NCBI GenBank assembly: GCA_003225315.1
Contig: QHZD01000023.1
Span: 90,347 to 154,346, forward strand
DNA length: 64,000 nt
DNA from: Acidobacteriota bacterium
GTDB lineage: Bacteria > Acidobacteriota > Terriglobia > Acidiferrales > UBA7541
Reading direction: 5' to 3'
The notes below the pieces were generated by a model, which was not told where the DNA came from, searched no databases, and was given only the letters and a program-made list of their open reading frames with translations. Positions 1,668-34,890 of the stretch are shown one piece after another. Position 1 is the stretch's first letter. Each line of letters opens with the position of its first letter. A program made the position numbers and the translations under genes.

Positions 1668-3359
1668 TCACTGCGCCGGCTCAATAGCCTTCAATATCTG
1701 CCCGGCCTTGACGTTCTCGAATCTCTGGACAACCCCGGACGGCCACCGGATTTCGACCAACTTGGCAATGGAATCGCTGCCGAGGCCCGCTATCAACCGT
1801 TTGTCACTAGCTGAAAGATATCCGACGGCCGTATTAACGGTGAAATATTGCGCCAACCCAGACGCGGACACAACTCTTACGCTACAGCCAGTGCCGTCAC
1901 GGTTTGATTTTCTGCCGATGGTTTGTATCCCTAACCACTTTCTGTTGTTCCCACCGTCATTTCGCAGCACGTAAGCTCTTTGACCCACGTTGCTGACCAC
2001 GATGTCGACATCACCGTCGTTGTCGATATCGCCGAACGCCGCACCCCGGCCCGCCCATTCTTTTTGAAAAACGGCGCCGGGAACTACCCTCACGAAATGG
2101 CCAGACTCGTTCCGCAACAGCAGCGGTGGCTCGAGGTATTTCATGTTGGGTGAGGTTTGCTCGATAGTGTCCATCACATGCCCCTGCGCAACGAAGAGAT
2201 CTTTCCAGCCATCATTGTCGTAATCGAACAAATGCGTACTCCAACCGGAAAAAGCGAAAGTCCAGCCGCCCATGCCGGACGGGTTGGTCACATCCTGGAA
2301 GGTGCCTTCGCCGTTGTTGTGAAAGAGGTGATAGCGTTCATTAGAAAGGTCCGTGACGACAATGTCGGGGCGACCGTCATTGTCGTAATCGCTGAAGTCG
2401 GCCCCCATCCCTGCAAACACTTTGCCGTCCTCATTGTAGGCAACGCCTGCGGGAAGGCCGACTTCGGTGAACGTGCCATTTCCGTTGTTGTGGTACAAGA
2501 AGCTAGCCACCGAATCGTTGGCGACAAAGATGTCCGTGAAGCCGTCGTCGTCATAATCGGCAAAAGATACCCCTAGTCCTTTGCCTTCAGGGTTAGCAAT
2601 GCCAGCCTTCGCGGAAACGTCGGTAAATGTTCCGTCCCCATTATTGTGATAGAGGATGTTCGCGACGCCCTTGAAATTGTCGGGGTGACAGTAGGCCCGC
2701 AAGCCGGGTTTCTGTTCTCCACAATAGCGGTTGTTCCGGAAGCTCCAATCCACATAACGGGTCACGAAGAGGTCGAGGTTGCCGTCATTGTCGTAATCGA
2801 AAAACCCGGCGCTCGCACTCCATCCGCCAGCGACAACTCCGGCGCGTTTCGTTACGTCGGTGAAAGTGCCGTCCCCATTGTTATGATAGAGCGTGTTCCC
2901 GCCATAGCCTGTTACGTAGATGTCTTCAAAACCATCATTGTCGTAGTCGCCCACCGCCACACCCATCGGATAGTAGTTCTGCGCCATCCCAGTGAGGCCG
3001 GCTTTTTCCGTCACATCCGTGAATGTGCCATCGGGGTTTTGATGATAAAGCCGGTTCCAAAACCTTCGATCGGTCTTGTCCGGAAGCTTGCCGTCCGGCA
3101 TCGGATCGTCGATCTTCGCGCCGTTGGTGAAGAAGATGTCCAGCCGCCCATCGTTGTCATAGTCCAGGAGGGCCACGCCTCCTCCCATAGTTTCCACCAA
3201 GTACTTGCTGGAAGTTGCCGAGTTTTCGTGCTTGAAATCGATGTTCGTGGACCGGGTGATATCGGTGAAATGCACCTCCGGACCGGCTGTGGCCGCGGTC
3301 ACACAGAAGAAAAGCCCAAAGGACACGACCCAGCGGCGCGCATTTGAATATCTTCCCAT
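1668..3359 (-). CDS. CRTAC1-family protein (FG-GAP/VCBS repeats + C-terminal ASPIC/UnbV), paralog 1
   Basis: Repeated DYDNDGxxD blades followed by HHNxxGTFTDV, GRGAAFGDIDNDGDVD, and C-terminal GYLSASDKRLIAGLG...VEIRWPSG. The ORF track opens at TTG 3455; ATG 3359 (MGRYSNARRWVVSFGLFFCVTAATAG, signal-like) is preferred. Confidence 0.9.
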   Translation of the reverse strand: MGRYSNARRWVVSFGLFFCVTAATAGPEVHFTDITRSTNIDFKHENSATSSKYLVETMGGGVALLDYDNDGRLDIFFTNGAKIDDPMPDGKLPDKTDRRFWNRLYHQNPDGTFTDVTEKAGLTGMAQNYYPMGVAVGDYDNDGFEDIYVTGYGGNTLYHNNGDGTFTDVTKRAGVVAGGWSASAGFFDYDNDGNLDLFVTRYVDWSFRNNRYCGEQKPGLRAYCHPDNFKGVANILYHNNGDGTFTDVSAKAGIANPEGKGLGVSFADYDDDGFTDIFVANDSVASFLYHNNGNGTFTEVGLPAGVAYNEDGKVFAGMGADFSDYDNDGRPDIVVTDLSNERYHLFHNNGEGTFQDVTNPSGMGGWTFAFSGWSTHLFDYDNDGWKDLFVAQGHVMDTIEQTSPNMKYLEPPLLLRNESGHFVRVVPGAVFQKEWAGRGAAFGDIDNDGDVDIVVSNVGQRAYVLRNDGGNNRKWLGIQTIGRKSNRDGTGCSVRVVSASGLAQYFTVNTAVGYLSASDKRLIAGLGSDSIAKLVEIRWPSGVVQRFENVKAGQILKAIEPAQ

Positions 3360-3583
3360 GGCATGCCTGTCGAATCCTCTGGTTGCTAACAATTCCTTCG
3401 CTTTCCTGCAGGACAAAAGGTGATTGGCGTGCGAGCTCAGAAAGCTCTCCTTCAAGCCAGCAGGCCACGCGAGATCTACGCTTTCTACCTTCGTGGCGCG
3501 GCCCAGACCGACTCCTGATTCAGGCTTACCGCTTTCTTAAGGCTATTTTCAGTTCCGGAATACACATGAGCATTCATGGTCAT

Positions 3584-3649
3584 GCTGCCAACGGCCAGTA
3601 TGATAACGCAGCGTCGGGATGCCACCGAAGCTAATCCTCCAAGGTTCGG
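3584..3649 (-). promoter_or_regulatory. Duplicated promoter-like block, copy A
   Basis: About 50 of ~66 aligned positions match 16861-16926, and 23/24 match in the core CCGAAGC(T/A)AATCCTCCAAGGTTCG. The minus strand reads TTCGGT-N18-TATCAT. Confidence 0.6.
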
Positions 3650-3926
3650 AACCGCCTCATTAATAATTGCGAGGACGGATCGTCCGGCCGGAGCTTTGCG
3701 GATTGGTAGGAGTTGGCTTGTCGTCTTTCGAGGATTCGCCGGGATTAGTCGTGGCGGGCTGATAGATCGCGGTATTTGATGAGACTCCGGGGAAATCCCG
3801 TTCGCGAGGAGGAACCGCCGTTTGCCAGCCGGTCCCAGTGCTGGCCTGAGGTACTCACTCGGCTTTCTTTCCAGGCAGCTTTTTCCAGGCGTGCAAGATA
3901 CTTCTTTGATCGTTCGAAAAAACTTC

Positions 3927-3988
3927 TTGACATCAGTGCTTCAGGAGGAGTATCAGTGCACGCAATGCCCTCGGGAAAACGTTTACCG
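3927..3988 (+). promoter_or_regulatory. Sigma70-like promoter with downstream LacI-type operator
   Basis: TTGACA (3927-3932)-N18-TATCAG (3951-3956); GGGAAAACGTTTACCG at 3973-3988 matches the 1395-1410 palindrome at 13/16. Confidence 0.6.
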
Positions 3989-4229: not shown

Positions 4230-7200
4230 ATGAAGCGGCCATCAACTCTCGTGGTCCTTCTGTTGTGTGTTTTTGTCGTGTCCAGCGGGCAGAGCCTGTG
4301 TGCCCAGTTGGCCGACCGGGCTGAAATTACCGGTATCGTCACCGACGCAAGCGGTGCGGCGGTTCCCGATGCCAAGGTGTCGATCATCAACCAGGATACC
4401 GGTGCGAAAATAGTGGTGGGCACGAACAGTGCCGGAAACTACAGCACGCCCCCACTCCTCCTAGGTACCTACACTATAGAGGTCGAAAAAGAAGGCTTCA
4501 AGCATGCCACCCACCCCGGCATCATGCTGAGCGGCGCGCAGAGTTTCCGCCAGGATGTGAAGCTCGAACTCGGTTCGGTGACTCAGTCCGTCGAGGTCGA
4601 GGGTGGCGCAGCGCTGATTAACACTGAAAACTCAACGGTGTCTCACACGATTGGCGAGACCTACTATCGCGATCTTCCAGGAGTGATGGGGGCTGACATT
4701 CGTCTTGCCGAGTCCCTGCTGCAACTACAGCCGGGCTTTGTGCCCATGCAGCCGAACGGCGACGCGATTTTCCGCGGCAGCCAATTTACGTCGCGGATCA
4801 ACGGCGGCCAAACCATGGCCACGGAGAATTGGTTTGACGGCGCGGCTTTCGGCTATGCGGAAGGTCACCAAGGGACGCAGGAAAGCGCGGTGCCCTACCC
4901 CTCCGTGCAGGAAATGACAGTCGTCGAGAATACCTTTTCCGCACAGTACGGACACACTAGCGGCGGTTTTATCACCTATGCCACGAAATCCGGCACCGAC
5001 AAGCTGCATGGCAACGTCTACAATTTCTTCACCAACGATAAGCTGGACGCGGGGAACTTCTTTTTTGCCGGCATACCGACAATCCCGAATAAGAAACTGC
5101 CTTTGACCCAAGATAATTGGGGTGCTGCCGTGGGCGGGCCCGTTCCGAAGATTACCAAATGGGGCAAAACGTTCTGGTTCGTCAACGTGGACGGCCTCGA
5201 CTACCACAGCACGGTTAACACCGGTTTTGTGAACACGCTTCCGACGCCTCTCCAGAAGCAGGGCAACTTCAGCGAGTTCCTGGGAGCCCAAGCAACGGAT
5301 AAGTGTCCGGCGGGGACAGCAAATGCGGGCCTGGTTTACCCCGTCAGCGATCTTCTTGGCAATCCTATTCTTAAGGGTCAAATATACAATCCGGATCCGA
5401 CAACTTTCCAGACGGTCACAAAAACCACTGTTGACCCTTGCACGGGGAGTCCTATCACGGTGGTAAACGGTACTGTGCGCACGCCTTACGCGGGCAACAT
5501 TATCCCAGCTAATGACCCGCTGCGGAGCTCATTGGCGGCATTTATGATTCCCAACATCCCGGGGCTTGATCGCAACACATTAGCCGTTAACGGTTTTGGC
5601 GGAAGTTCGGACGATAATAACAAGATTAACGTCAGAACCTGGCTTTTCCGAATCGATCACACGTTCAACAGTAAGTTCTCCGTCAGCAACACCTACTACC
5701 AGAACAACCGGCCGCGCACCGCTCACTGCGGCGGGCCGCAGGGCTGCACCACGGTGCACAATGGACAGACGGATTCCGCGGCAAACGATACCTACATCGG
5801 CCAGGGATTCTTCCAGCGCATTACCAACCATTTCGAACACGTGCAGATGAACTGGGTGATCAAGCCGAACCTCTTCAATCACACCACACTGGCCTACGAC
5901 CGCTGGCATATGCAAGGCAACCAATTATCCGGAGGTGTAGGCTGGAATCAGAAGCTCGGACTCGGCCTGCCCAACCAAGCCATATTCAACAACGCCGGCT
6001 TTCCGTCGATTAACTTCAGTGGACCTCAAGGCTACACCGCTTACGGGACACCTTGGGCAAGCGGAGGGAGCGACATCAACAATCGCTATCAATTTCTCGA
6101 CGACATCACCTGGATTACCGGCAAGCACACGATCAAGGCCGGGCTGGAATTCCGCTATATGACTTTCCCGCAAACCGGCTGGGCCGTCAACACAGGAGGT
6201 AGTTTTAATTTCAGCGCCAACGAAACTGCCAACTACGATTTCAGAGGCGCTAACAGAAGCGATGTGAGTGGGAACGAGTTCGCCTCTCTCATATTGGGGC
6301 AAGTGAACAGTGCCAATTTCTCTGCACCGTTCAGTTATATGCCGAAGATGAGATATGGCTCTCCCTGGATCAACGACGACTTCAAGTTGACGCCCAAGCT
6401 TACGCTGACCTTGGGTATCCGCTTCGACTGGCAATCAGGGCTGTCGGAGCAGCACGGAAAGTTTTCCACATTCGATCCTACCGCTGCCAACCCTGTCGGC
6501 CATCTGGGAGCAACGGTATTCGGCGGCAGCAAGCCTATCGGGAACAGCAGTTGGAGCGTTGGTCCGCGCTTCGGCTTTGCGTATCAGATCAAGAACAAAA
6601 CCGTGATCCGCGGCGGATACGGGATGTACTATGCCGGTGCGCAGGCCGACTCGTGGGATCCTTACCCAGTGGACGGCTACCAAACCAACCCGGTGGCGCC
6701 GAATATAACCAATGGGTTATTTCCGGCGTTCTACTTCCAAGGAACCGGTAGCTGTCCGAGCGTGTATGGTCCCACCAACCCGGCTCCTTGCGGCTGGCCG
6801 ACAGGGTCCATCGTGCTCCCGCCCCAACTCAAGGCCGACGTAGCGAATGGCGGAAACCCCGTGGGCGTGGATCCCAAGACATACACGATGCCCCGCTATC
6901 AGAATTGGTCGATTTCGTTCCAGCGCCAACTGGGCCAGAACATGGCGGTCGATATAGCCTACGTGGGCAATCATGGGACGCGACTGATCGATGGCCGCAG
7001 CTCCGCCGGAGTATATGACAACATGAACCCCGGGAGTGTGCTCGCTTTGGGTAGCGTTCTCACGAACGGGCAATTCAGTAACGGTATTCCCAACCCCGCC
7101 GCGATTGCGGGGGGATTCGCGAGTCCCCCGTACCCGGGTTTCACGGGAACAGTGGCCCAGTCTTTGCGAACGTGGCCGCAGTACCGGCAGATCAATTGGC

Positions 7201-7967
7201 GCTATTTTCCAAACGGCAATAGCCACTACAACGCTCTCCAGGCTTCCTTTGACCGGCGCATGAGCCAGGGCCTGCAGCTCCGTGTTGCTTACACCTATTC
7301 CAGGCTCATGAATAACGGCTCGGAAACTGGGTTGGGAGCCGGGGGACCTCCCGTGCAGAATCCCAGCGATATGAGCGACCTATACACCGTCAGTTCCGAC
7401 GACGTGCCGCACATTTTCACTTTCGGCTGGATCTACCAGTTGCCCTTCGGCAAGAGTAAGCTGGTGGGAAGGAACGCGTCGGGGGTTTTGGACAAGCTCA
7501 TTGGCGATTGGCAAATCTCGGGGACTCAGACTTACCAATCCGGGAGACCGCTGTCCATTACCATGGCGAACAACAGCCTCGGCGGATATCTCTTTAACTA
7601 TACCGAATATCCCAATAAGGTAAGCGGCACCAAGGGATTGACCGGAAACTTCCACGACCCGAACAAGGACACTTACTTGAACTCATCAGCATGGGCCGAC
7701 CCGGGACAATTTGCCTTCGGTAATGCTCCCCGCGAGGATGCGAGCGTCCGTGGTTTTAGGTACTTTAACGAGGACTTCTCCATCTTCAAGGACACACACT
7801 TCGGCGAGGGTCGGTACGTTAGGGTCCAAGCCGACGCTGGCAACGTTCTCAACCGCGTTTTCTTTTGCCCGGTGGGCACGGCTTTAGGTAACGCCAACTT
7901 CGGGAAAACAGGCAGCCAATGCAATGTGCCGAGGCGAGTCCAGCTCGGGTTGCAAATTTTCTTCTAG
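4230..7967 (+). CDS. Acidobacterial Oar-like TonB-dependent receptor (N-terminal carboxypeptidase-regulatory-like domain)
   Basis: 1245 aa; signal peptide; ITGIVTDASGAAVPDAKV; FSAQYGHTSGG...TKSGTDKLHG plug motif; GPRFGFAY; C-terminal RRVQLGLQIFF (terminal Phe); GGAGG RBS. Confidence 0.93.
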   Translation: MKRPSTLVVLLLCVFVVSSGQSLCAQLADRAEITGIVTDASGAAVPDAKVSIINQDTGAKIVVGTNSAGNYSTPPLLLGTYTIEVEKEGFKHATHPGIMLSGAQSFRQDVKLELGSVTQSVEVEGGAALINTENSTVSHTIGETYYRDLPGVMGADIRLAESLLQLQPGFVPMQPNGDAIFRGSQFTSRINGGQTMATENWFDGAAFGYAEGHQGTQESAVPYPSVQEMTVVENTFSAQYGHTSGGFITYATKSGTDKLHGNVYNFFTNDKLDAGNFFFAGIPTIPNKKLPLTQDNWGAAVGGPVPKITKWGKTFWFVNVDGLDYHSTVNTGFVNTLPTPLQKQGNFSEFLGAQATDKCPAGTANAGLVYPVSDLLGNPILKGQIYNPDPTTFQTVTKTTVDPCTGSPITVVNGTVRTPYAGNIIPANDPLRSSLAAFMIPNIPGLDRNTLAVNGFGGSSDDNNKINVRTWLFRIDHTFNSKFSVSNTYYQNNRPRTAHCGGPQGCTTVHNGQTDSAANDTYIGQGFFQRITNHFEHVQMNWVIKPNLFNHTTLAYDRWHMQGNQLSGGVGWNQKLGLGLPNQAIFNNAGFPSINFSGPQGYTAYGTPWASGGSDINNRYQFLDDITWITGKHTIKAGLEFRYMTFPQTGWAVNTGGSFNFSANETANYDFRGANRSDVSGNEFASLILGQVNSANFSAPFSYMPKMRYGSPWINDDFKLTPKLTLTLGIRFDWQSGLSEQHGKFSTFDPTAANPVGHLGATVFGGSKPIGNSSWSVGPRFGFAYQIKNKTVIRGGYGMYYAGAQADSWDPYPVDGYQTNPVAPNITNGLFPAFYFQGTGSCPSVYGPTNPAPCGWPTGSIVLPPQLKADVANGGNPVGVDPKTYTMPRYQNWSISFQRQLGQNMAVDIAYVGNHGTRLIDGRSSAGVYDNMNPGSVLALGSVLTNGQFSNGIPNPAAIAGGFASPPYPGFTGTVAQSLRTWPQYRQINWRYFPNGNSHYNALQASFDRRMSQGLQLRVAYTYSRLMNNGSETGLGAGGPPVQNPSDMSDLYTVSSDDVPHIFTFGWIYQLPFGKSKLVGRNASGVLDKLIGDWQISGTQTYQSGRPLSITMANNSLGGYLFNYTEYPNKVSGTKGLTGNFHDPNKDTYLNSSAWADPGQFAFGNAPREDASVRGFRYFNEDFSIFKDTHFGEGRYVRVQADAGNVLNRVFFCPVGTALGNANFGKTGSQCNVPRRVQLGLQIFF

Positions 7968-8121: not shown

Positions 8122-9996
8122 CTATCGCTTGCCAAATTGGTCGCGCCGAATTATGCCCCGGCCCTCTTGAATCACGAGCAATTGGTTCACGCTAACGTTT
8201 TTGAACGATTCCATCAGTCCCAAAGGCCATTGGACTTCAACCAAGTCTGCCTGCTTGGCCCGGCCAAGCCCAAAGTGCAGGCGAAAGTCATTTTGGGACA
8301 TGTAACTGGAACCGCTCATTACCTCATTGATTTGAGAATGCCGGCCAGTAACCACGCGCACGCGAGCGCCAACGGCGCTCCGATTGGACTTGGTACCGAT
8401 GCACTTGACCTTTAGCCAGTTGTTCCGCGAGCTGCAATCATTGCGGAGAAGCGAAGGCGCCTCGTTCATGTTTAGAACTGCGACGTCCACGTCTCCGTCG
8501 TTGTCGAAGTCTCCGAAGGCAGTCCCTCGGCTGCTGTGCGGCTGAGTTACGCCCGGTCCGGCGCTCGATGTAACATCTGTAAAGCTCCCGTTGCCGAGAT
8601 TCTTGTAGACAGTCTTTCCCTGTTTGAACGTCACGTGTAGTCTCTTCGTGTCGACGGTAGGGAAGACGTGGCCGTTGGACATGAAGATATCCGGCCAGCC
8701 GTCGTTGTCGAAATCAAAAAGTCCTACTCCCCATCCCAGATACTTCGTATTGACGCCCAATCCCGCCTGAAAGACAGCGTCATAAAATGTGCCGTCGCCG
8801 TTGTTATGGTATAGATTGGCGGTCTGGTCGGAATAGTTGGTCTTGACGATGTCGAGCCAGCCGTCGCAGTCGTAGTCGCCAACTCCCACGCCCATGCCGC
8901 CCTGGGCCGTCCCGTTCTCGTTGAGGGCACAGCCCGCGTCGCCGCCTATCTCCTGGAACGTTCCATCTTGATTGTTGTGGTAGTAACGGCTGGGGACGGA
9001 ATCGCACGCTACGTAGATGTCCGGCCAGCCGTCGTTGTCGAAGTCCGCCGCACACACTCCGAGTCCGTAAGAGCCCGCGGGCACCCACTGATTGCTGACA
9101 GAAGTCGGCGCCGTTGAGCCGCGCGGGACCGACACACCTGAGCGCTCGGAAACGTCCTCAAATGTTCCGTCGCCGCGATTGCGGTACAGGATGTTCGTCC
9201 CCCCACTCATCCCTTGCGGTCCGCATCCGACGGACAGACCATAATACCTGCAGTACTGGTTCTCGCCGGGTTGAGGCGCCACTCGAGGATCAAAATTCAC
9301 ATAGTTTGCAACAAACAAGTCGAGGTGGCCGTCACGGTCGTAGTCCACAAAACAGCAACCCGTGTTCCATCGCGGCGCTGGACCGTTTTGAACAAGGCCA
9401 GCCTTTTGCGTGACATCAGTGAATGTCCCATCTCCATTGTTGTGGTAAAGGACGATTGCACCCCAGTAAGTCACGACCAGATCGTCGTATCCGTCGTTGT
9501 CATAATCTCCGACGCAGCACCCCTGACCCCATCCCGAGCGAATCAGTCCAGTTTTCTCCGTTACGTCTGTAAAGGAGCCATCGCGGTTATTGTGAAACAA
9601 GAAGTTGGCCGGCTGATGTTGCGCCGAGATGCCTTCAAATCTCGTCCCATTGACCATAAAGATGTCCAGCCAGCCATCGTTGTCGTAGTCAAAAAGAGCG
9701 ACGCCACATCCGGTTTCCTCTAGGAGCAAGCGCTTATGCGTAACGCCGCCAAAAACGTTAATTGCTCCGCCCAAACCCGCCCTTGCGCTAATATCTGTGA
9801 AAGAAAATCTCGCCGCATGGCCAGGACTGCTCTGGGGTTTCCGGCTTGCAGGTGATGCCGGCGATCTTTGAAGTGCCGTCGCGTCATGCAGCCCTGTCAG
9901 CAGTAGAGACGCGGGCACCACGGAGCCCAAACGGCCAAGTTGGCGGAGAAAGTCACGCCGTGATCCTGAGAGATTGCTGAGCAGACGAAGGCTCAT
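8122..9996 (-). CDS. CRTAC1-family protein, paralog 2 (Tat-like signal)
   Basis: SRRDFLRQLG; repeated D(Y/F)DNDGWxD blades; SRGTAFGDFDNDGDVD; SSYMSQNDFRLHFGLG...VEVQWP. Confidence 0.92.
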   Translation of the reverse strand: MSLRLLSNLSGSRRDFLRQLGRLGSVVPASLLLTGLHDATALQRSPASPASRKPQSSPGHAARFSFTDISARAGLGGAINVFGGVTHKRLLLEETGCGVALFDYDNDGWLDIFMVNGTRFEGISAQHQPANFLFHNNRDGSFTDVTEKTGLIRSGWGQGCCVGDYDNDGYDDLVVTYWGAIVLYHNNGDGTFTDVTQKAGLVQNGPAPRWNTGCCFVDYDRDGHLDLFVANYVNFDPRVAPQPGENQYCRYYGLSVGCGPQGMSGGTNILYRNRGDGTFEDVSERSGVSVPRGSTAPTSVSNQWVPAGSYGLGVCAADFDNDGWPDIYVACDSVPSRYYHNNQDGTFQEIGGDAGCALNENGTAQGGMGVGVGDYDCDGWLDIVKTNYSDQTANLYHNNGDGTFYDAVFQAGLGVNTKYLGWGVGLFDFDNDGWPDIFMSNGHVFPTVDTKRLHVTFKQGKTVYKNLGNGSFTDVTSSAGPGVTQPHSSRGTAFGDFDNDGDVDVAVLNMNEAPSLLRNDCSSRNNWLKVKCIGTKSNRSAVGARVRVVTGRHSQINEVMSGSSYMSQNDFRLHFGLGRAKQADLVEVQWPLGLMESFKNVSVNQLLVIQEGRGIIRRDQFGKR

Positions 9997-10000
9997 TTGA

Positions 10001-11599
10001 TCAGTCGGGTAACAGCAATCGGAGTTTCAAGTCCGTCTGCGAACTCCGCTCTGCCTCAAGCTTGCGTGACTCGGCAAACTGACTATCGGACTCGGCGGTT
10101 CTGCCAAGACGGCGAAACAACAAGCCGAGCTGATAGTGGGCTTGCACGGACCCGGGATCGAGCAGAACCGCGCGTTCAAGTTCTTCCTGGGCTTCGTCAT
10201 AGTGGTGCTGTCTCAAAAGTATGCTCCCCAGCTTGACACACGAAGGCGCATGCTCGCCGTGACTCCTGAGCAGGTCGCGAAACACCACAACAGCCCGATC
10301 ATCCTCGCCAAGCGCATCATAAGTAAGGCCCAGGTAGTAGGAAGCCGCAACCTGATCGGGCTGCGCTTGCAGGCTTTGTTTGAGCAAGGACTCGGCCTCG
10401 GGGTACTTGCCCTGCAGGTAGTTCACTGCCCCGATCGAATACTTCACGACGGCATCATGCGGATGCTTTTGTAGTAGCCGTGCGAATAGCGACGCAGCTT
10501 TGGAGAGGTTGCCTCTAGCGACGTTGGCGGAAGCCAAAACATAGACGTACGGATCCCGGTCGGGTTTTAGCGCGACTGCCTTTTCGAGCGCAGGCAAAGC
10601 ATCCTCCAGCAGATTTCGCTGTAGGCACACTTTTCCGAACTCGAAAAGGATTTCAGGATCTTCAGGATCCAGTTGTTTCGCCGTGACCAGGTACGCCAAA
10701 GCCTTCTCTGTATTCCCTTGCCGCTCCGCAATCTCGGCAAGGCCCTGGTCACAAACCGTGCACGCCGGGTTCAAGTCGAGCGCGCGTTGAAAGTTCTGCT
10801 CTGCTCTGTCCATAACTCCCAGGGACAAGTAGCTTTTTCCGAGCTGCAAGGCTAGCGTGGGGGAAGGATGCTCAGCGCTCTTTACTTCTTCGGCTTCGAA
10901 AACCTGTTTCGCCTCGAGGATCATTCCGAACATCGTCAAGACATTGCCAAATTCCAGGGATGTTTCGTCGGACGCGGCGGGCAACTGCTGCCAGTTACGA
11001 ACCAGGCCCCTAAGGGCTTCTTTTTCCCCCAGCGAACCATAGTCCGTTGCCAGCAACAGAATACCGTCATCGGACTCGCTTAGTTGAGCTATGATCGGGC
11101 CTGCCACTTCCAAGGAATGCCGATAGTTATGGAGAGATGCATCAACCTTGGCCAATTCAAACCGGGCGTTGAAGTTCCCGGGATCGAGCTTCACAGCCTC
11201 CCGGAAGCTTCTCCGCGCCAAATCCGGTTTACCCTGCAATAAGTAAGCGTTTCCCAGACTCGTTCGAGCGCCCACCAAATGAGGATTAAGCGCTAAGGCC
11301 TGGGTTAGAAAGCTCGTGCTCTCTTTATATTTGCCTTCCTCCAGCCGGATCGTTCCCAGCATCGCCAAAGCCAGCGCTCGAGTGGGCGGATTTCCCAGGG
11401 CCTGGCGCGCTTCAGTTTCCGCCTGGTCCATTTGTCCCTGGCTCAGCAGACGCGCCGCCATCTCAATATGGTTGAGCTGTGCCAACCCGACGATGGGGAA
11501 AATCAGAAGTGCAAGACACAGCTTGTACCAGCAGAGTGCGGGCCCAGCCCGGCAAGCGCAGTGCCGGAGGAACTCTGCGCGCTCACCAAAACTGCGCAT
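10001..11599 (-). CDS. Exported tetratricopeptide-repeat protein
   Basis: 532 aa of TPR-like helices (ALALNPHL..ARTSLGNAY, AVLLDPGSVQAHYQLG); stop lies 4 nt before the CRTAC1 paralog 2 start. Confidence 0.88.
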   Translation of the reverse strand: MRSFGERAEFLRHCACRAGPALCWYKLCLALLIFPIVGLAQLNHIEMAARLLSQGQMDQAETEARQALGNPPTRALALAMLGTIRLEEGKYKESTSFLTQALALNPHLVGARTSLGNAYLLQGKPDLARRSFREAVKLDPGNFNARFELAKVDASLHNYRHSLEVAGPIIAQLSESDDGILLLATDYGSLGEKEALRGLVRNWQQLPAASDETSLEFGNVLTMFGMILEAKQVFEAEEVKSAEHPSPTLALQLGKSYLSLGVMDRAEQNFQRALDLNPACTVCDQGLAEIAERQGNTEKALAYLVTAKQLDPEDPEILFEFGKVCLQRNLLEDALPALEKAVALKPDRDPYVYVLASANVARGNLSKAASLFARLLQKHPHDAVVKYSIGAVNYLQGKYPEAESLLKQSLQAQPDQVAASYYLGLTYDALGEDDRAVVVFRDLLRSHGEHAPSCVKLGSILLRQHHYDEAQEELERAVLLDPGSVQAHYQLGLLFRRLGRTAESDSQFAESRKLEAERSSQTDLKLRLLLPD

Positions 11600-11772
11600 A
11601 TTCCTTCATCATAGCAAGCTGCCACAACCGGGGCAACTTCTTAGAGTTTTTGTGAACGCGCGAACACGCGAAAACATTGTGAGCGTGCGTCCGCAGGTGT
11701 AAATTCTCTTGTCAACGAGTTGGACGGTATTCTGCTGAAGTCGTGCAGCTATCTGGGGAGCTCCACAGCTTA

Positions 11773-13700: not shown

Positions 13701-16700
13701 CTAGTCGCGTTGGCTCTTCGGTTGAGGCGGGTTGGCGGAGCGATTTGCGAGATTTCGCCGCATTTCTTCCAGGTCGCTTGTTTCCTTCTCCAGGCGCGTG
13801 AACGAATCCAGAGCCTTTTGGCTATCTTCCAAGTTCCCAAGCCGCCGATAAATGTGGGCCAGAACGTAATAATACGAAGACGCTCGAGGATTTAATGAAA
13901 TGGCCCGGTTCAGGGCATCGAGAGCATCAATCAGCCCTCCCTGTGCTTCCCTGGCTTTTGCCTGCTGGAACCAGGCGCCATCAGACTTGGGATCGAGTTC
14001 CGACGCGGCCCGGGCGTACGCTAGAGCCTTTTCGGAATCACCCTTCCGATTGTAATACGCGCTGAGGTTCACATGCGCCGACGCGAACTTTCCCTTCATG
14101 GCTTCGTTGATCGCAATGGCTTTCTCATAACTCGCGACAGCTCCAGCGTCATCGCCCAGAGCCTCCTGAGCAAAACCCAGACCATCCAAACTTTCCACGT
14201 ACGAAGGGTCGATATGGAGTGCGGCTTCAAACTCCTTTCGTGCAACGCTCCAATTGTCCTGGATGGAGAATAATTTGCCCAAGTTGAAATGCATCTCAGC
14301 GGATTGCGGGTTGTACCGGATCCCCTGCTCGAACTCCGCCCGGGCGGCGTCGTACCTGCCAATGATCATCAGGTTGCGGCCGAGAATCTTGTGCGCCTCA
14401 GCATTTTGGATGTCGAGTTGGAGCGATTTCGTGAGCGCCTGAATGGATTCGCCGATTTTTCGTTGGGCGAACTGGCTGTAGCCCAAGGCATACCAACCCC
14501 AAGAGGTTTTCGGGTGCTCGTTGACATAAGCAGCCAGGAGCGGCTCAACCTCCTGGAATCGCCCCGCTCGGATGTAGCCTTCAAATTCGGCGATACCTTG
14601 GGAGTCGTCCGCAAGTGCCTGGTCCTTCGAAAGCAACTGGACTTTTTCTCTGGCGAAGACGTCGCCGGGATTGAACCCCACTGCCTTTCGATACGCCGCG
14701 GCAGCACCCTGAGCATCGCCTTCCTTTTCAAGAGCCACTCCCAAGAAATGCTGGGCGTCTGAAGATTCGGGCTGGAGCTCAACCGCGTGCCGAAATTTGG
14801 CGGCGGCTTGATCCAAATCACCTTTGTCGAGCGCCACGCGGCCTTCGACGATATCCAAATCAGCGTTCTGCCTCCGGTCGTCGGAGGAAGCCAATTCGCG
14901 GCTCTTCTGCAACTCAGCAGTGGCCTCATCCTTTTGTCCTGCCCGCGCCAGAGCCAGCCCAAGCTGGTAATGAGCCTTGGTATTCTGTGGCTCAAGCCGC
15001 GCCGCTTCCCGAAGCTCTCCGATAGATTCCTCCACTTTCCCGTCGCTGAGAAGTGCCTTACCCAAAGCGAGGCGCGCACGCGCAAAGTTTGGTTCGGTCG
15101 CGACTACCTTACGCAACTGTTCGATTTCTTTAGCCGGCCCAGAGCTCGGGTCTGACCCGTACGCCACCGCGAGATTGAACTGCGCTTTCAACAGTCCCGG
15201 GGCGAGCGCTACGGCTCGCTGGAGTTCCCGCACGGCCTCTCGACTGTCCGTAGGAATGAGGACGGTGCCTAGATTCGCGTGCGCGTCCGCATAATCGGGT
15301 CGGATGCGCAGAGCCTCACGAAACTCGGCGATAGCTGCTTTGTCCTCGTTGCCCTGCGCTAGCACCAGCCCTATGTTATTGTGTGCATCCGCGAAATCCG
15401 GGCGCAGGCGCACGGCCTCACGAAACTCCGCCAGAACATCTTTGCTGTCTGCACCCTTGCGTCCAAGCAGCAGTCCGAGCATGTTGTGCGCTTCGGCGCG
15501 GTCCGGCTTCGCAGCCAACGCTCCGCGAATGCCTGCAATCGCCATATCCCAATCGGGGCTGGGACCAGACGAAGCGGAAATATTGATCCCGGCCTCGAAT
15601 TGCGCCATCGCTTTATCGAGATCGCCTGCGCGAAGATAAACAGTTCCGAGGTCGATGTATGTGGCGGAGAAGGACGGCAGGAGCGCAATCGCGCATTGTA
15701 GGTTTCGTCGTGCGTTCTCTATCTGGCCCGTTTCGCCCAGAGCGGTTCCGAGAAAGGCGTAGCCAGCGCCTGCCGACGGATCAAGTCGAACAGCCTCTTG
15801 CAGCTCGGAAATGCCTTTGGTTTTCAAACCGCTGTACCACAGCGCAACACCAAAATTGTAGTGTGAGTCAGAAAGGTCCGGCCGGAGCGCTACGGCGCGC
15901 TCCAAGTGGACCAGCGCAGAAGGCAAATCTCCTCTTTGGCCTAGTATGAAACCGAGCAGATTGTGCGCGCCGGCGTGACTGTCATCTTTACTTAGGGCTT
16001 CGCTGAGTAGTCGTTCGGCTTCTTTCAGGTCGCCTTGTGCGGCAGTCTGCTCTCCACGCTTGTAGAGGTCGTCTGCCGGACTCGCCAGAGGCTGGCGTGG
16101 CTTGCGCAGCGATGCAGCCTGCTTCTTCAAGGCCAAGCCGAGCGCATAATAACCTTCGTGGAATTCCGGATTGATGCGCACCGAGCTCTCAAACGCTTCG
16201 ATTGCGCCCTGAAGATCTGCGCTCTGTTGTAGCGTCTGGCCGAACACGTACTGAACATCGGCGCTGTCCGGTTCGCGCTCGGCGACCAGCCGTAGATGCA
16301 CAAGAGCGCCCTTGGCATCACCTTTTTCCCGAAGAGCGACGCCCAGATTCAGGTGCGCCACTAGATTGCCAGGCTCGAGCGCGAGCGCTCTTTGAAAGGC
16401 CCCAACCGCTTCGGACAATTCGCCATTCTTGGCTAACGCCGATCCCAGGTTCGTGTACGCCCGCGCGTATTTTGGGTCAAGCGAGACGGCCTTCCTGAAT
16501 TCAGCGACGGCGCCGGGCAAATCACCTCTCTGCAATGTAGCGACACCTAACCAGTTGTGTGCCTCGGCAGAGGTGGGGCCCAACTTCACCGCGTGCTGAA
16601 AGGCTTCGAGAGCATGCAAGAAATCGTTCCGGTCCCAATACGCCAGGCCAAGCGCGACGTAGAGCTTGGGGCTGTCAGGATGTTGTTTTATTTCATCTTG

Positions 16701-16817
16701 AATCTGGCTGACCGATGCCGGCTCATTTTTACTTAGCTGTGCCCGGCCGGGCAGAATCGAACCCACCAGGAGAACGACCAAGCCTAGAGTTCGATTAACT
16801 TTCGCGCGACTGTCCAT
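13701..16817 (-). CDS. Large exported TPR protein (~1040 aa)
   Basis: More than 20 TPR-like units (AVSLDPKYARAYTNLG, AVRLRPDFADAHNNIG). The ORF track opens at 16919; ATG 16817 (MDSRAKVNRTLGLVVLLVGSILPGRAQ) gives a signal peptide and lies downstream of promoter-like block B. Confidence 0.88.
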   Translation of the reverse strand: MDSRAKVNRTLGLVVLLVGSILPGRAQLSKNEPASVSQIQDEIKQHPDSPKLYVALGLAYWDRNDFLHALEAFQHAVKLGPTSAEAHNWLGVATLQRGDLPGAVAEFRKAVSLDPKYARAYTNLGSALAKNGELSEAVGAFQRALALEPGNLVAHLNLGVALREKGDAKGALVHLRLVAEREPDSADVQYVFGQTLQQSADLQGAIEAFESSVRINPEFHEGYYALGLALKKQAASLRKPRQPLASPADDLYKRGEQTAAQGDLKEAERLLSEALSKDDSHAGAHNLLGFILGQRGDLPSALVHLERAVALRPDLSDSHYNFGVALWYSGLKTKGISELQEAVRLDPSAGAGYAFLGTALGETGQIENARRNLQCAIALLPSFSATYIDLGTVYLRAGDLDKAMAQFEAGINISASSGPSPDWDMAIAGIRGALAAKPDRAEAHNMLGLLLGRKGADSKDVLAEFREAVRLRPDFADAHNNIGLVLAQGNEDKAAIAEFREALRIRPDYADAHANLGTVLIPTDSREAVRELQRAVALAPGLLKAQFNLAVAYGSDPSSGPAKEIEQLRKVVATEPNFARARLALGKALLSDGKVEESIGELREAARLEPQNTKAHYQLGLALARAGQKDEATAELQKSRELASSDDRRQNADLDIVEGRVALDKGDLDQAAAKFRHAVELQPESSDAQHFLGVALEKEGDAQGAAAAYRKAVGFNPGDVFAREKVQLLSKDQALADDSQGIAEFEGYIRAGRFQEVEPLLAAYVNEHPKTSWGWYALGYSQFAQRKIGESIQALTKSLQLDIQNAEAHKILGRNLMIIGRYDAARAEFEQGIRYNPQSAEMHFNLGKLFSIQDNWSVARKEFEAALHIDPSYVESLDGLGFAQEALGDDAGAVASYEKAIAINEAMKGKFASAHVNLSAYYNRKGDSEKALAYARAASELDPKSDGAWFQQAKAREAQGGLIDALDALNRAISLNPRASSYYYVLAHIYRRLGNLEDSQKALDSFTRLEKETSDLEEMRRNLANRSANPPQPKSQRD

Positions 16818-16860
16818 CGACCCGCGTCCAACAGTCAAAGCTACAAATGAAAGTTGCCAA

Positions 16861-16926
16861 GCTGCCCAAGGCCTCGTATGATAGCGCATGATCGGATAAC
16901 GCCGAAGCAAATCCTCCAAGGTTCGA
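16861..16926 (-). promoter_or_regulatory. Duplicated promoter-like block, copy B
   Basis: Homologous to 3584-3649; minus strand TTCGGC-N17-TATCAT; spaced inverted repeat CCGAAGC-N11-GGTTCGA. Confidence 0.6.
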
Positions 16927-16957
16927 ATCGAAAGTCACCCTCACCCGACGAATCTTC

Positions 16958-19045
16958 ATGAAATCTGCTAGAACTAAAAGGGTGAGCCCCGCGATGAGTT
17001 TGGCTCTGTGGTCATCGTTCAGTTTTGTTCTCTGCGGTTTGTATCTCATTTGGCCTGCGCTTCGAGCCCAGCATCAACCAGGCCCGGCTGTCGCAGCAGT
17101 AGAGATCGATGCGGATCGGGTCGAGGGTCAAATAAGCCCGGTGCTCTACGGCCAATTTGATGAATTCATGTTTGAAGGTGTGAAGCGCGGACTGACCGCT
17201 GAACTGATTCGCGATCGAAGTTTCGACGAAGCACCAAATGCGATAGGGCTGCCTCGCTATTGGGAACGCGAACCAGATGACCGCAATGATGACCCAGGGC
17301 TGCACTTCTACTGGGATGACGCAGTGTATTACCCAACGCGCCACGAATTCATGAGTGAGCGAACCGAACATTCGCTGCGGGTGAATCTTGCTGAAGACGA
17401 TGGCCAGCGCCGTGGAATCCGCCAGGGAGAAATCCCCATTCGGCAGGGACTCCCTTACCATGGCTATCTGTGGATCAAGACCGATGTATTCAAGGCTCGC
17501 ATCCATGTTGCTCTGGAAGCGGACAGGACCGGCGGGGAAACCTATTCGTCTGCGGAGATCAGTGATGTTTTCGGAGATTGGAAGAAATACGATTTCACCC
17601 TGACTCCTTCAAAGAGTGATGCGCTCGCAAAGATCGTCATCCTGTTAAGCGGAAAGGGCCGCCTCTGGCTCGACCAGGTTTCTATGTTACCGGGCGATGC
17701 CGTGGATGGCGTGCGCTCCGATGTCTTCCAGAAGATCAAAGCGTTGCGCCCTGCCTTTATTCGCTGGCCAGGCGGAAACGTTGCTCAGGATTATCACTGG
17801 ATGTGGGGCATTGGTCCGCGCGATCAGCGCCTCACATGGACAAACCTTTCCTGGGGCAACGAGCCGGAGCCCAGCGATTTTGGCACTGATGAATTCGTTC
17901 GTCTCTGCCGAAATGTCAGCGCTGAACCCTCGATTACCGTGAATGTCGAGGGCCGCGGCGCAACAGCTACTGAGGCAGCGGCGTGGGTCGAGTATGCGAA
18001 CGGCCCGGTATCTTCCCGTCAAGGCGCCATGCGCGCAGCGAACGGCAACTCCAATGCGTTCAAGGTGAAGTATTGGGAAGTTGGGAACGAAATCTGGGGA
18101 GACTGGGTTCACGGGCACAGTGATGCCAATACCTATGCACAGAACTTTGAACGCTACGCCGCAGCCATGTCCGGCGTCGACCCGTCCATCCAGCTAGTCG
18201 CTGTCGGTGACAACAACATGGACTGGAACCGCACGGTCTTGCAGCTTGCGGGTCCTCATATCGACTATCTTGCGATCCATCATTATTACGGTACCAGGGA
18301 TATGATGGGTGATCCGTCAAACCTCATGGCTCACCCATTGTCCTACGAACGCTTCTACAAGCAACTTGGTGATCTCATTCATGATCTCGTTCCCGGACGC
18401 ACAATCAAACTGGCCATCAACGAATGGAACACCTCGTCGCCCGTGCCGCGCCAACACTCGATGGAGTCTGCCTTATACGCCGCGCGGCTTATGAACGTAT
18501 TCGAGCGCAGCGATATTGTGGCCATGAGCGCCGTGTCCGACATGGTGAACGGGTGGTCGGGGGGAATGGTTCAGGCCAGCCACGACAACCTATTCGTCAC
18601 CCCAACGTACCTCGTCAACGAACTTTACAATCGCCACCTTGGCGCACAACGAATCACCGCGCGCGTAAGCAGCCCTACATTCGACGCAACCAGGGAGGGC
18701 AAAGGCGTGCCTTATTTGGATGTAGTGGCGAGCCGCACTGCTGACGGTAAGCACATCTTCATTAAAGCCGTTAATACAGATCCGCAGAGAGAGCTGCGCA
18801 CCTCAGTTCACATTGATGGGGCGCAGGTCCCTTCCAGCGCCGTCATTGAGACAATCAACGCGGATTCGATGACGTCGGCCAACAGCTTCGCGACTCCGAA
18901 CGCAGTTTCACTACAGCAGAAAACGATCAAAATCGGACCGCATTTTCTGGTCGATTTCCCCCAACACTCGGTTTCCGTCATAACCCTGAATATACTGAGT
19001 CCGACTGCTTTCCGACGTAGTACCGCAGTCGTTAATTCCGATTGA
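16958..19045 (+). CDS. Secreted GH51 alpha-L-arabinofuranosidase-like protein with CBM4/9-like insert
   Basis: LYGQFDEF; ELIRDRSF; IRWPGGNVAQDYHW; FGTDEF; YWEVGNEIWG (acid/base Glu); AINEWN (nucleophile Glu); C-terminal FPQHSVSVI. Confidence 0.9.
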   Translation: MKSARTKRVSPAMSLALWSSFSFVLCGLYLIWPALRAQHQPGPAVAAVEIDADRVEGQISPVLYGQFDEFMFEGVKRGLTAELIRDRSFDEAPNAIGLPRYWEREPDDRNDDPGLHFYWDDAVYYPTRHEFMSERTEHSLRVNLAEDDGQRRGIRQGEIPIRQGLPYHGYLWIKTDVFKARIHVALEADRTGGETYSSAEISDVFGDWKKYDFTLTPSKSDALAKIVILLSGKGRLWLDQVSMLPGDAVDGVRSDVFQKIKALRPAFIRWPGGNVAQDYHWMWGIGPRDQRLTWTNLSWGNEPEPSDFGTDEFVRLCRNVSAEPSITVNVEGRGATATEAAAWVEYANGPVSSRQGAMRAANGNSNAFKVKYWEVGNEIWGDWVHGHSDANTYAQNFERYAAAMSGVDPSIQLVAVGDNNMDWNRTVLQLAGPHIDYLAIHHYYGTRDMMGDPSNLMAHPLSYERFYKQLGDLIHDLVPGRTIKLAINEWNTSSPVPRQHSMESALYAARLMNVFERSDIVAMSAVSDMVNGWSGGMVQASHDNLFVTPTYLVNELYNRHLGAQRITARVSSPTFDATREGKGVPYLDVVASRTADGKHIFIKAVNTDPQRELRTSVHIDGAQVPSSAVIETINADSMTSANSFATPNAVSLQQKTIKIGPHFLVDFPQHSVSVITLNILSPTAFRRSTAVVNSD

Positions 19046-19161: not shown

Positions 19162-19211
19162 TCTGGTTCGGGACCAGGAGGTCGATGGTTCAAATCCATT
19201 CGCCCCGACCA
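19162..19211 (+). pseudogene. 3' fragment of tRNA-Pro(CGG), att-like remnant
   Basis: Anticodon stem TCTGG/CCAGG with loop TTCGGGA; variable AGGTC; T-arm GATGG-TTCAAAT-CCATT; acceptor 3' strand CGCCCCG-A-CCA. No complementary 5' acceptor strand (CGGGGCG) or D-arm upstream. Confidence 0.88.
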
Positions 19212-33900: not shown

Positions 33901-34118
33901 GGCGAGAGCATCTCACCTCAGCCCTGTCACGAGCGGAGTTCAACGCACAAAACAGCGCGTACCAGGGTTGGTGGGTCTATTCCGCCGGGGTCTTGCAGAT
34001 GGCCCTTGGGCACGAAGCTCAAGGCAAGGCGTCCCTTCGCGAATCCTTGCTCTTGCCCGACAGCCGAATGTCTTACCACTTCAGCCGACTAGCAATGGAG
34101 GGTGCTACACCTCAATAA
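30903..34118 (+). CDS. DUF5107 domain + TPR protein
   Basis: YPY...LENEYLK.SVLPDLGGHI; IGYRGAWAAFGVEFNFP; RFYWWNNAAV; KKIWSWG; YVELQAG; C-terminal TPRs. ATG 30903 gives a signal-like N-terminus (ORF track opens at 30807). Stop overlaps the agaR stop region. Confidence 0.8.
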   Translation: MRWTVLFLFLSLTVVPIRAQVRVWEGVLNLPAYEEGAPDPNPPFDEFASGRFNYPYTMRKEVTDRRAEHQWRAIYLENEYLKCSVLPDLGGHIYTCIDKISGQPMFYANPSIKKARIGYRGAWAAFGVEFNFPVSHNWVSMSPVDFAYASHEDGSASITVGNIDRVYGMEWSVQLTLPPSSTVLEQHVTLSNRSDIRHRFYWWNNAAVQVWDDSQIQYPMRFAAAHGFAEVQRWPVDPKGKDLSVIRDQTDGPVSLFVHGSRENFMGVWHPRTNTGTAHFADYAELRAKKIWSWGVDAEGLGWREALSDNNSAYVELQAGLFRNQETYAFLEPRQSISFTEYWMPVRDTKGISRANLAGVVHLERKAGMLAVCLNSNRKLLDATIQILDGNSSVLNEKENLVPERLWKRDIQIPDAGKKYTFELRNNEGALLLRQTEGKYDWAPESEIKVGPQISHRIPEETRRTAGDWLQQGGTEELNGNLLAALHTYQKALTKFPTDLELLKAAGRLDTSLMRFEEAVPRLAAAHARSTTDAETSYYLGIAYQGVERENDGIDAYEEAMRLPSYRAAAALRLSELLARRGALKEARDFLTKSLESAPDDLRAGEELVAVSRAMGSRVDGEKMARQRLARFPLSDFLQEELGKPNILHLAADPYRVLNIASEYARLGLYRRAVEVLSREYPSPEADQSEPGAVAPQKNPLVVYFRGYCREKLGESGASDYLQASQLSTVAVFPNTIEDQQALKAAIRANEKDATAHYLLGTWYFAREKTEEAILEWQQARKLDPQIPVLEASLGLALLHMKRDFAGAMNVFAEGIRNDPSNAVNYSGTVAAMAVLEKSAAERAKALELYPDLSHMPISLVYELALNRAEEGNYEGAIDLFQNRFFGSEEGGTDVRHVWVEVKLQQAIGLARTGHCEEALVAAKALGSPVPSLSFTQDGLEPLLDSARTNYLLGEAYSACGQKEEAQRRYRLSAQGTDSSDVVWEWAAAKKLSGYDANLWREHLTSALSRAEFNAQNSAYQGWWVYSAGVLQMALGHEAQGKASLRESLLLPDSRMSYHFSRLAMEGATPQ

Positions 34119-34890
34119 CTTCTATGCCCTTCTTACGAAGGGCCCCAGTGAAATCCTGCGTGGCACGGTTATCCGTAATCAGGCGACGGATTCTGTCAAA
34201 GGGGCCGATCTTTGAAACGCTCCTCCGACCGAGTTTGCTGAAATCCGTGACAACATTGACCTCCTTGGCGGAGCGGATCATCACGTTGTTGAGTTGTGCT
34301 TCGAGCACGTCCGGAGTCGAAGGGCCGTTCTCGAGATCGAAACCATCGACCGCTAGGAAAAGACGGTCAGCGTGGAACTCGTTCATCATGGCTTCTGCCT
34401 GAGGTCCGACGAAGGAGCAAGCAACCGGCCGCAGCAGCCCACCGATCATTATTAAGGAAATTCCGGGAGCGTCCGCAAGCTCAACCGCAATGTTCAAGGC
34501 ATTCGTGATGACCGTAAGCGACTGAACTTTCACCCTTTTCAAGTGTCGGGCGACCTCTGCCGTAGTCGTTCCTGAATCAAGGATGATGGTTTCGCCCGGC
34601 TGCACTAACTCGGCCGCGGCTCTTCCGATCCTAATTTTTTCATCCCGGTGAAGAGTTTCTTTGGTACGGAGCGGGTAATCCTGTGTGGCTTCCAGGCGCC
34701 TTACTGCGCCGCCGTGAGAGCGCACCACTGCGCCGATAGAAGCGAGAGAGTCGAGGTCGTTGCGGACCGTGACGGCAGATATTGAGAATCGCTTAACCAT
34801 ATCCGCGACAGTTACTTGGCCCTCTTGGTCGACGAGGTCCAGCACACTCCGGCGCCGCTGTTCTGTTAGCAGACGAGGTTTGGGGGTCAT
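34105..34890 (-). CDS. agaR: DeoR-family transcriptional repressor, AgaR-like
   Basis: EQRRRSVL...SAVTVRNDL...RSHGGA HTH; IILDSGTTT; VITNALNIA; DRLFLAVDG; located beside agaS and lacD. Confidence 0.8.
   Translation of the reverse strand: MTPKPRLLTEQRRRSVLDLVDQEGQVTVADMVKRFSISAVTVRNDLDSLASIGAVVRSHGGAVRRLEATQDYPLRTKETLHRDEKIRIGRAAAELVQPGETIILDSGTTTAEVARHLKRVKVQSLTVITNALNIAVELADAPGISLIMIGGLLRPVACSFVGPQAEAMMNEFHADRLFLAVDGFDLENGPSTPDVLEAQLNNVMIRSAKEVNVVTDFSKLGRRSVSKIGPFDRIRRLITDNRATQDFTGALRKKGIEVIEV

Follow-up and report, generated by a model that had tools for sequence, protein, structure and literature searches.

Two similar intergenic blocks, one upstream of a CRTAC1-like gene and one upstream of a gene for a large TPR protein, are by sequence comparison the decayed 3' coding end of a lost TPR gene of ~530 aa. 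A TATCAT hexamer that appears to have been derived in this relic most likely serves as the promoter of the genes downstream, and we consider the combined reading, a gene relic with a putative second function, highly probable. The initial annotation of this DNA had explained the likeness of the two blocks by selection on a promoter shared by both genes and dependent on an activator. Translated comparisons with related loci point to a different origin.

Two copies of a block in divergent intergenic regions

The window, i.e., the whole 64-kb stretch of DNA analysed here, comes from a soil acidobacterium and covers a region for carbohydrate utilisation. Its products include three CRTAC1-like proteins (FG-GAP/UnbV_ASPIC), TPR proteins of 532 and 1038 aa, CarboxypepD_reg outer-membrane receptors, glycoside hydrolases, sugar kinases and a DeoR-family regulator, whose gene (34105-34890) is the only regulator gene found in the window. 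The sequence is found in many soil metagenomes and is near-identical to 'Acidobacteria bacterium 13_2_20CM_57_17' (L023).

Copy A of the block (3580-3649, minus strand) lies between CRTAC1-like gene 1 (1668-3359, minus strand; FG-GAP/UnbV_ASPIC), which most likely starts at ATG 3359 (MGRYSNARRWVV...), and a divergent CarboxypepD_reg/OMP beta-barrel receptor gene (4230-7967, plus strand). Copy B (16857-16926, minus strand) is located within the 140 nt that separate the gene of the 1038-aa TPR protein (TPR1038; 13701-16817, minus strand) from a divergent arabinofuranosidase-like gene (16958-19045, plus strand). Because both copies occupy divergent intergenic regions, the strand served by the block is not obvious from the window alone. 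The window further contains an intact 532-aa TPR gene (TPR532; 10001-11599, minus strand), which directly precedes CRTAC1-like gene 2 (8122-9996), and a third CRTAC1-like gene at 11743.

Just downstream of the arabinofuranosidase-like gene, the segment 19135-19211 resembles the 3' part of a tRNA (GGTTCAAATCC...CGCCCCGACCA). ARAGORN finds no tRNA at this position, the Rfam tRNA model scores 21 bits against a threshold of 29, and many tRNA contigs from the RNA runs pile up at 19163-19200. The fragment may be an integration or rearrangement scar. Such a scar may also fit the arabinofuranosidase-like gene having replaced the GH39 neighbour of other strains.

The presence of two intergenic copies in the same orientation, as initially annotated, is borne out by blastn of copy A against the window, which aligns the copies at 79.7% identity over 69 nt (copy B side 16858-16925, E 2.9e-10). 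The core CCGAAGCNAATCCTCCAAGGTTCG has exactly two sites in the 64 kb (3625-3648 and 16902-16925), with 0 expected from 100 shuffles. The two core copies differ at the N alone, and an exact count thus returns the 23/24 identity first reported. Likewise, the minus-strand motifs had been read correctly, with TTCGGT-N18-TATCAT in copy A and TTCGGC-N17-TATCAT in copy B, and an inverted repeat is present as CCGAAGC-N11-GGTTCGG in copy A (3625-3649) and as CCGAAGC-N11-GGTTCGA in copy B (16902-16926). The extent of ~65 bp holds for the block itself, but the homologous unit is longer, reaching ~190 nt in copy A (3470-3661) and ~330 nt in close relatives of copy B. The blocks are the best-preserved parts of these longer units, as judged by blastn, profile and core count.

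With a profile of the block family, the window yields these two sites only (next match E 0.73), and no further copies were found there or in any related locus retrieved. Searches for extra relic sequence upstream of copy A or downstream of the CRTAC1-like gene found none. The block does not behave like a dispersed repeat or MITE, with two copies in 64 kb, one per related locus, and always the same gene junctions.

Descent from the 3' end of a TPR gene

The coding ancestry of the block is seen most clearly at a more distant TPR1038 orthologue locus (L075, 65% identity). Here, the preceding TPR gene is intact (528 aa; 918-2504) and shares an ATGA overlap with the start of the 1036-aa TPR orthologue. 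The block profile matches inside the coding region of this 528-aa gene (2216-2282, E 0.002), and the final 112 codons of the gene can be aligned to block and leader sequence in close relatives. In tblastn searches, the C-terminus of the L075 protein matches the region 5' of the TPR1038 orthologue in L072 (61.6% over 112 aa, E 1e-42) and in L010 (63.9% over 83 aa, E 7e-33) as well as the region 5' of the CRTAC1 orthologue in L042 (46% over 71 aa, E 3e-13). The initial annotation had itself named a coding relic as an outcome that would speak against a selected shared promoter, and a coding relic is what the L072 and L010 matches reveal. Hence, the two copies are alike because they descend from one coding sequence, namely the 3'-terminal codons of a TPR gene of ~530 aa, and not because they share a transcription-factor site.

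Both relics in the window carry the marks of decay. Relic A, a C-terminal coding remnant delimited by tblastn and alignments (3470-3661, minus strand), reads RTLED*LRWHPDAALS from 3648 to 3601 and AVGSMTMNAHVYSGTENSLKKAVSLNQESVWA from 3595 to 3500. It contains an in-frame TAG stop and a frameshift, and weaker similarity continues towards the CRTAC1 start. The segment AVGSMTMNAHVYSGTENSLKKAVSLNQESVWA matches P0121, a coding-state homologue, at 53% over 32 aa (tblastn, E 1.3e-5). Relic B is a short form (16818-16940, minus strand; alignments and translated match) that reads IRTLEDLLRRYP from 16928 to 16893 and, after a 1-nt frameshift, DHALSYEALGSL from 16893 to 16858; P0121 reads IRTLEELLHRYPDHAPSCEALGGL at this motif. 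In the translated comparison, the two 12-aa pieces of copy B match at 83% and 75% identity. Beyond the block, relic B has undergone an internal deletion of ~205 nt and then continues with the last ~35 nt of the old gene to the former ATGA overlap. In the codon-level alignment, the former stop/start junction with TPR1038 survives in the relics as CAATGA or CGATGG. In the L072 relic, the last ~112 codons alone remain. Taken together, the relics combine significant translated similarity, a broken or truncated frame and the position of the intact gene in L075.

The type of operon from which the relics derive, with a ~530-aa TPR gene preceding a CRTAC1 or TPR gene, still stands in this genome as TPR532 and CRTAC1-like gene 2. 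TPR532 is a distant paralogue of the relic-source gene, and its 3' end (10339-10004) matches the L075 C-terminus at 44% over 112 aa (E 3e-26). Homology and synteny show the ancestral arrangement to be an operon, in which a ~530-residue TPR gene was located immediately upstream of the ~1040-residue TPR gene and of CRTAC1-like genes. The front of the ~530-aa gene was then lost, and its tail of ~60-110 codons gained a stop, frameshifts and internal deletions. The decayed tail now forms the 5' flank of the downstream gene.

A search with the relic translation for closer intact homologues returned three short proteins only. P0121 (L076:649-954), located upstream of a TPR1038 orthologue, is an independently truncated tail whose 101-codon frame is still open. 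P0122 and P0123, which correspond to the relic region (as L072:~800-1000), are public 101-aa 'hypothetical proteins' that represent genes called within the relic and terminate at its internal stop.

The relic also bears on gene starts in the window. Orthologues of TPR1038 align from ATG 16817, which equals the called start in L075, in agreement with the start proposed initially. An extension of the gene to TTG 16919 was rejected, as the added part is relic sequence whose frame differs between strains. A 46-aa ORF at 3485-3625 was likewise rejected as a real gene, its frames differing between strains.

Related loci were collected with degenerate-pattern scans, which yielded 4 true loci from genomes and 42 from metagenomes, falling into five types. 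With a loose pattern, the genome scan gave 25 loci, comprising the 4 real ones and 21 chance matches in unrelated phyla. The relic is situated upstream of CRTAC1 in type A and in type D (L042), upstream of TPR1038 in type B, with a long or a short leader, and upstream of a CRTAC1-TPR1100 pair in type C (L034, L035). Type E comprises Candidatus Acidoferrum loci with the relic upstream of TPR1038 (L024, L066, L070).

The same soil populations are polymorphic for the TPR1038 leader, which measures ~230 nt (L010 type, 5530-5740) or ~55 nt (window type, 16857/16858). The two forms differ by the ~205-nt deletion inside the relic, and the extra ~205 nt of the long-leader relatives of copy B resemble the leader of copy A. 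Within the block, copy A and the long form of copy B are 79% identical, and the remaining relic sequence gives 69%. Nearly the same relic segment has been lost through independent deletions in L074 and in the Acidoferrum type. Both loci also occur, at 95% protein identity to the window, on contigs (L010 and L016, DATHIB01) of a metagenome-assembled genome (MAG) labelled 'Candidatus Limnocylindria bacterium' (Chloroflexota); this label is probably a binning or labelling error.

A candidate -10 box for the downstream genes

Consensus scans detect sigma-70-like sites on the plus strand only in both copies, so the direction of the block was settled by cross-genome comparison. In 46/46 related loci, the relic lies directly 5' of a minus-side gene for a ~1040-aa TPR or CRTAC1-like protein. 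In L010, L024 and L066, a GH39 gene co-oriented with the TPR gene has its 3' end on the plus side of the block. The minus-side gene is the sole neighbour that remains linked throughout, including at loci flanked by GH39, and the assignment of the block to the minus-strand genes made in the initial annotation therefore stands.

The candidate -10 box of CRTAC1-like gene 1 is TATCAT at 3600-3605 (minus strand), which lies inside the conserved TGCGTTATCATAC, and that of TPR1038 is TATCAT at 16878-16883 (minus strand). Together with a poor -35, these boxes would most likely drive transcription from ~3593 into the CRTAC1-like gene and from ~16871 into the TPR gene. The hexamer matches TATAAT at 5/6 positions in both copies and in all relic types, with TATGAT in L074. 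The -35 elements TTCGGT and TTCGGC match TTGACA at 2/6 positions, and the consensus scan finds no minus-strand sigma-70 site passing 9/12 in either copy. Spacings typical of sigma-54 or ECF-type promoters, inspected by eye, are not conserved in the block.

Conservation within the relic is focused on the box. The 13-nt stretch TGCGYTATSATAC holds 11 of the 23 columns that are invariant across eight relic types (permutation P 0.0002; P 0.004-0.013 with stricter column sets), and the 16-mer upstream of the box varies in L072 and L074. Thus, the conservation peak described initially is real insofar as TATCAT lies inside the most conserved stretch, but its supposed concentration in the palindrome is not seen when block and remaining relic are compared. 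The block as a whole is barely more conserved than neutral sites, with identities of 0.97, 0.86 and 0.66, vs. 0.93, 0.82 and 0.57 at fourfold sites in the neighbouring TPR gene.

Homologues in the coding state lack the box. L075 has TCGTCCTGT and L076 has CCGTCCTGT, which at the position of the box corresponds to (C/T)CGTCCTGT in both, and TPR532 encodes PSC. The (P/S)-S-C codons of these homologues would have become L-S-Y (TTA TCA TAC) in the relic, creating the -10-like TATCAT. The hexamer therefore looks derived in the relic lineage, on the evidence of three coding-state homologues only, so that L-S-Y could predate the loss of the gene. A birth of the -10 box in the relic is plausible from these comparisons, and the extra conservation of the box suggests a second life of the relic as a promoter.

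Deletions point in the same direction. Three of them, with different end points (window type, L074 and Acidoferrum type), remove the interior of the relic, and all three spare the block through TATCATACGAG as well as the last ~35 nt before the ATG. Moreover, the promoter of TPR1038 must lie inside the relic because the window offers just 140 nt of divergent intergenic DNA. This spacer is almost entirely relic, and TATCAT is the sole good -10 candidate in it.

The main competing view holds that the blocks are functionless, decaying relics, that the downstream genes are transcribed by read-through or from another start, and that the box is due to chance or to a mutational cold spot. The near-neutral conservation of the block overall fits this view, as does the operon as the ancestral state. 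Furthermore, some TPR orthologues have exchanged the relic for a LacI gene and a new TTGACA-N17-TACACT promoter, and an RNA contig from run X32 extends unbroken from the 3' end of GH39 through the relic into the 5' end of the TPR gene. In the window, however, the downstream genes diverge from their neighbours, which makes read-through impossible, and TPR1038 has no more than the 140 nt to house a start of its own. The clustering of invariant columns on the -10-like box and its survival through three independent deletions also argue against the absence of function, which we regard as unlikely.

RNA data are sparse and contradictory and consist of assembled, unstranded, low-depth contigs from ten metatranscriptome runs. 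A 411-nt contig from X22 on L010 ends at 5742, ~10 nt downstream of the predicted start, and leaves the palindrome uncovered. For relic A, an RNA contig spans 3362-3512. The X32 contig (594 nt) crosses the whole block and reaches the upstream GH39 gene, and contigs from X30 and X33 lie over sequence upstream of the box. The coverage from these three runs reflects either read-through transcription or DNA in the library.

The plus-strand sites found by the consensus scan lead to another interpretation, in which the block would combine a plus-strand sigma-70 promoter with a leader hairpin exposing a CCUCC loop and would serve the receptor and arabinofuranosidase genes or a small RNA. The sites read TGGTCA-16-TATGAT in copy A (3577-3604, 9/12) and TTGCCA-17-TATGAT in copy B (16854-16882, 10/12). 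The former shares a near-palindromic TATSATA box with the minus strand, and in copy B, too, such a box (16878-16883 on the minus strand) gives a -10-like hexamer on both strands. Besides the restriction of scan hits to the plus strand, this interpretation can draw on the arabinofuranosidase-like gene starting 32 nt after the block, and the site at 16854-16882 may indeed serve that gene (16958). In most related loci, however, the 3' end of a minus-strand GH39 gene occupies this side and leaves nothing to drive. The -35 is not conserved (AGGCCA in L010), and the hairpin is no more stable than shuffles and has no Rfam match. The receptor gene at 4230 has a nearer candidate, TTGACA-N18-TATCAG at 3927-3956, ~270 nt upstream, and contigs from X30 start at 3973; this site is probably the receptor gene's own promoter with a long 5' UTR. 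A plus-strand role as the general explanation of the block is thus very improbable.

Finally, the long leader derived from the relic in copy A and in long-leader strains could be a structured cis-regulatory RNA. RNAalifold predicts an 8-bp long-range helix between 3578-3585 and 3501-3509 that is 96% paired, whereas slid controls collapse to 15-47%. Compensatory changes occur at two positions (C-G to U-A and G-C to A-U), in four clades only and thus as few independent events, and the sequences that show them are those from which the structure was predicted. The segment has been deleted without obvious harm in window copy B, in L074 and in the Acidoferrum type. Rfam yields nothing at gathering thresholds over the whole window and, for both leader regions, chance-level matches only at relaxed E-values. 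We therefore give a regulatory leader RNA hardly any credence.

The inverted repeat and relation to known systems

The inverted repeat of the block corresponds to the codons R-T-L-E-D-L-L-R and has one internal G.G mismatch. In L072 its 5' arm has degenerated, and in the Acidoferrum type (L024, L066, L070) this arm is displaced by 2 bp, i.e., the repeat is not conserved across relic types. Folded as an RNA hairpin for four types and for either strand, it does not exceed shuffled sequence in stability (z -0.8 to +0.6). The activator proposed initially is unsupported because the repeat is neither conserved nor a stable hairpin.

According to that proposal, the block is an activator-dependent promoter, the repeat over the -35 binds an activator that co-regulates the CRTAC1 and TPR genes, and selection explains the similarity of the copies. 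Several features do fit. The -35 is weak and the -10 good, the repeat would centre near -43, and it is present in types A, B and D and in L074 and improved to a perfect 6+6 in type C (L034). In addition, GGAGGATTTGCTTCGG is identical in the window type and the Acidoferrum type despite a fourfold-site identity of 57%. Yet coding ancestry accounts for the similarity, and the codons account for the repeat. The loss or displacement of the 5' arm in the types named above extends to a further copy in the soil runs X14 and X17, from which this arm is apparently absent. Half-sites 18 bp apart, centre to centre, are unusual for dimeric helix-turn-helix proteins, and no candidate regulator gene was found near either copy in the window. 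The notion of a motif common to CRTAC1/TPR operons fails within the window itself, as the block is absent from both the operon at 8122-11599 and the CRTAC1-like gene at 11743 and so is no regulon-wide motif there. A literature search on CRTAC1/ASPIC-UnbV proteins with TPR proteins in Acidobacteria found nothing on their regulation. Overall, nothing points to an activator, and we judge this explanation very unlikely.

A broader variant would see the relic as a domesticated regulatory cassette. It would combine a codon-born -10, a putative factor on GGAGGATTNGCTTCGG, a leader-RNA helix tuning the CRTAC1 and TPR genes (in long-leader strains), and a bidirectional box at copy B that also drives the arabinofuranosidase-like gene. 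Such a combination strikes us as rather improbable.

The result warns against misreading similar intergenic blocks before related genes as a regulon motif, since the blocks here are leftovers of a lost gene. It also fixes the start of TPR1038 and flags P0122 and P0123 as gene calls over a relic. If the -10 box is confirmed, the relic would represent a natural, datable birth of a promoter from coding sequence in uncultured soil Acidobacteriota, whose stages (intact, freshly truncated, long leader, short leader) can all be seen in public metagenomes.

Gene relics are a known kind of element, of which those in the window are a new example. As in other bacterial gene remnants, translated similarity to an intact homologue persists, a stop, frameshifts and deletions break the frame, the position matches that of the intact gene in a related genome, and the length varies between strains. 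Unlike in such remnants, the -10-like box outdoes the rest in conservation and carries substitutions absent from the coding-state homologues.

The upstream region of the TPR1038 gene is evolutionarily plastic. In orthologues at 81-84% identity (L068:2779-3000, L069:2870-3000, L073:2317-2500), a divergent LacI-family gene replaces the relic. These loci have a promoter-like TTGACA-N17-TACACT site, as seen in L069, and a palindrome ACCAAACG...CGTTTGGT (ACCAAAC(G)...(C)GTTTGGT), which is clear in L068 and L069 and degenerate in L073. To judge from the sequence, this looks like a classic repressor/operator arrangement for the TPR1038 orthologue. L074 (76% identity) has both a LacI gene and a modified block. 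The window resembles these Terriglobia loci with their putative LacI control in the orthologous gene and its arabinofuranosidase/CRTAC1/TPR neighbourhood, whereas L068, L069 and L073 are without the block and the window is without the LacI gene and that palindrome.

The block shares a weak -35, a good -10 and a repeat that overlaps the -35 with its centre near -43 with class II activator-dependent promoters (CRP/FNR, site near -41.5). It differs from them in that its arms are 18 bp apart, are not conserved in all relic types and are explained by codons. Another parallel is offered by sigma-70 promoters that arise from non-promoter DNA by few substitutions (Yona et al., 2018; PMC5906472). Similarly, few changes here, from (C/T)CGTCCTGT to TTATCATAC, would give a 5/6 -10 hexamer in former coding sequence. 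In contrast to those de novo promoters, the one proposed here is deduced from sequence comparison.
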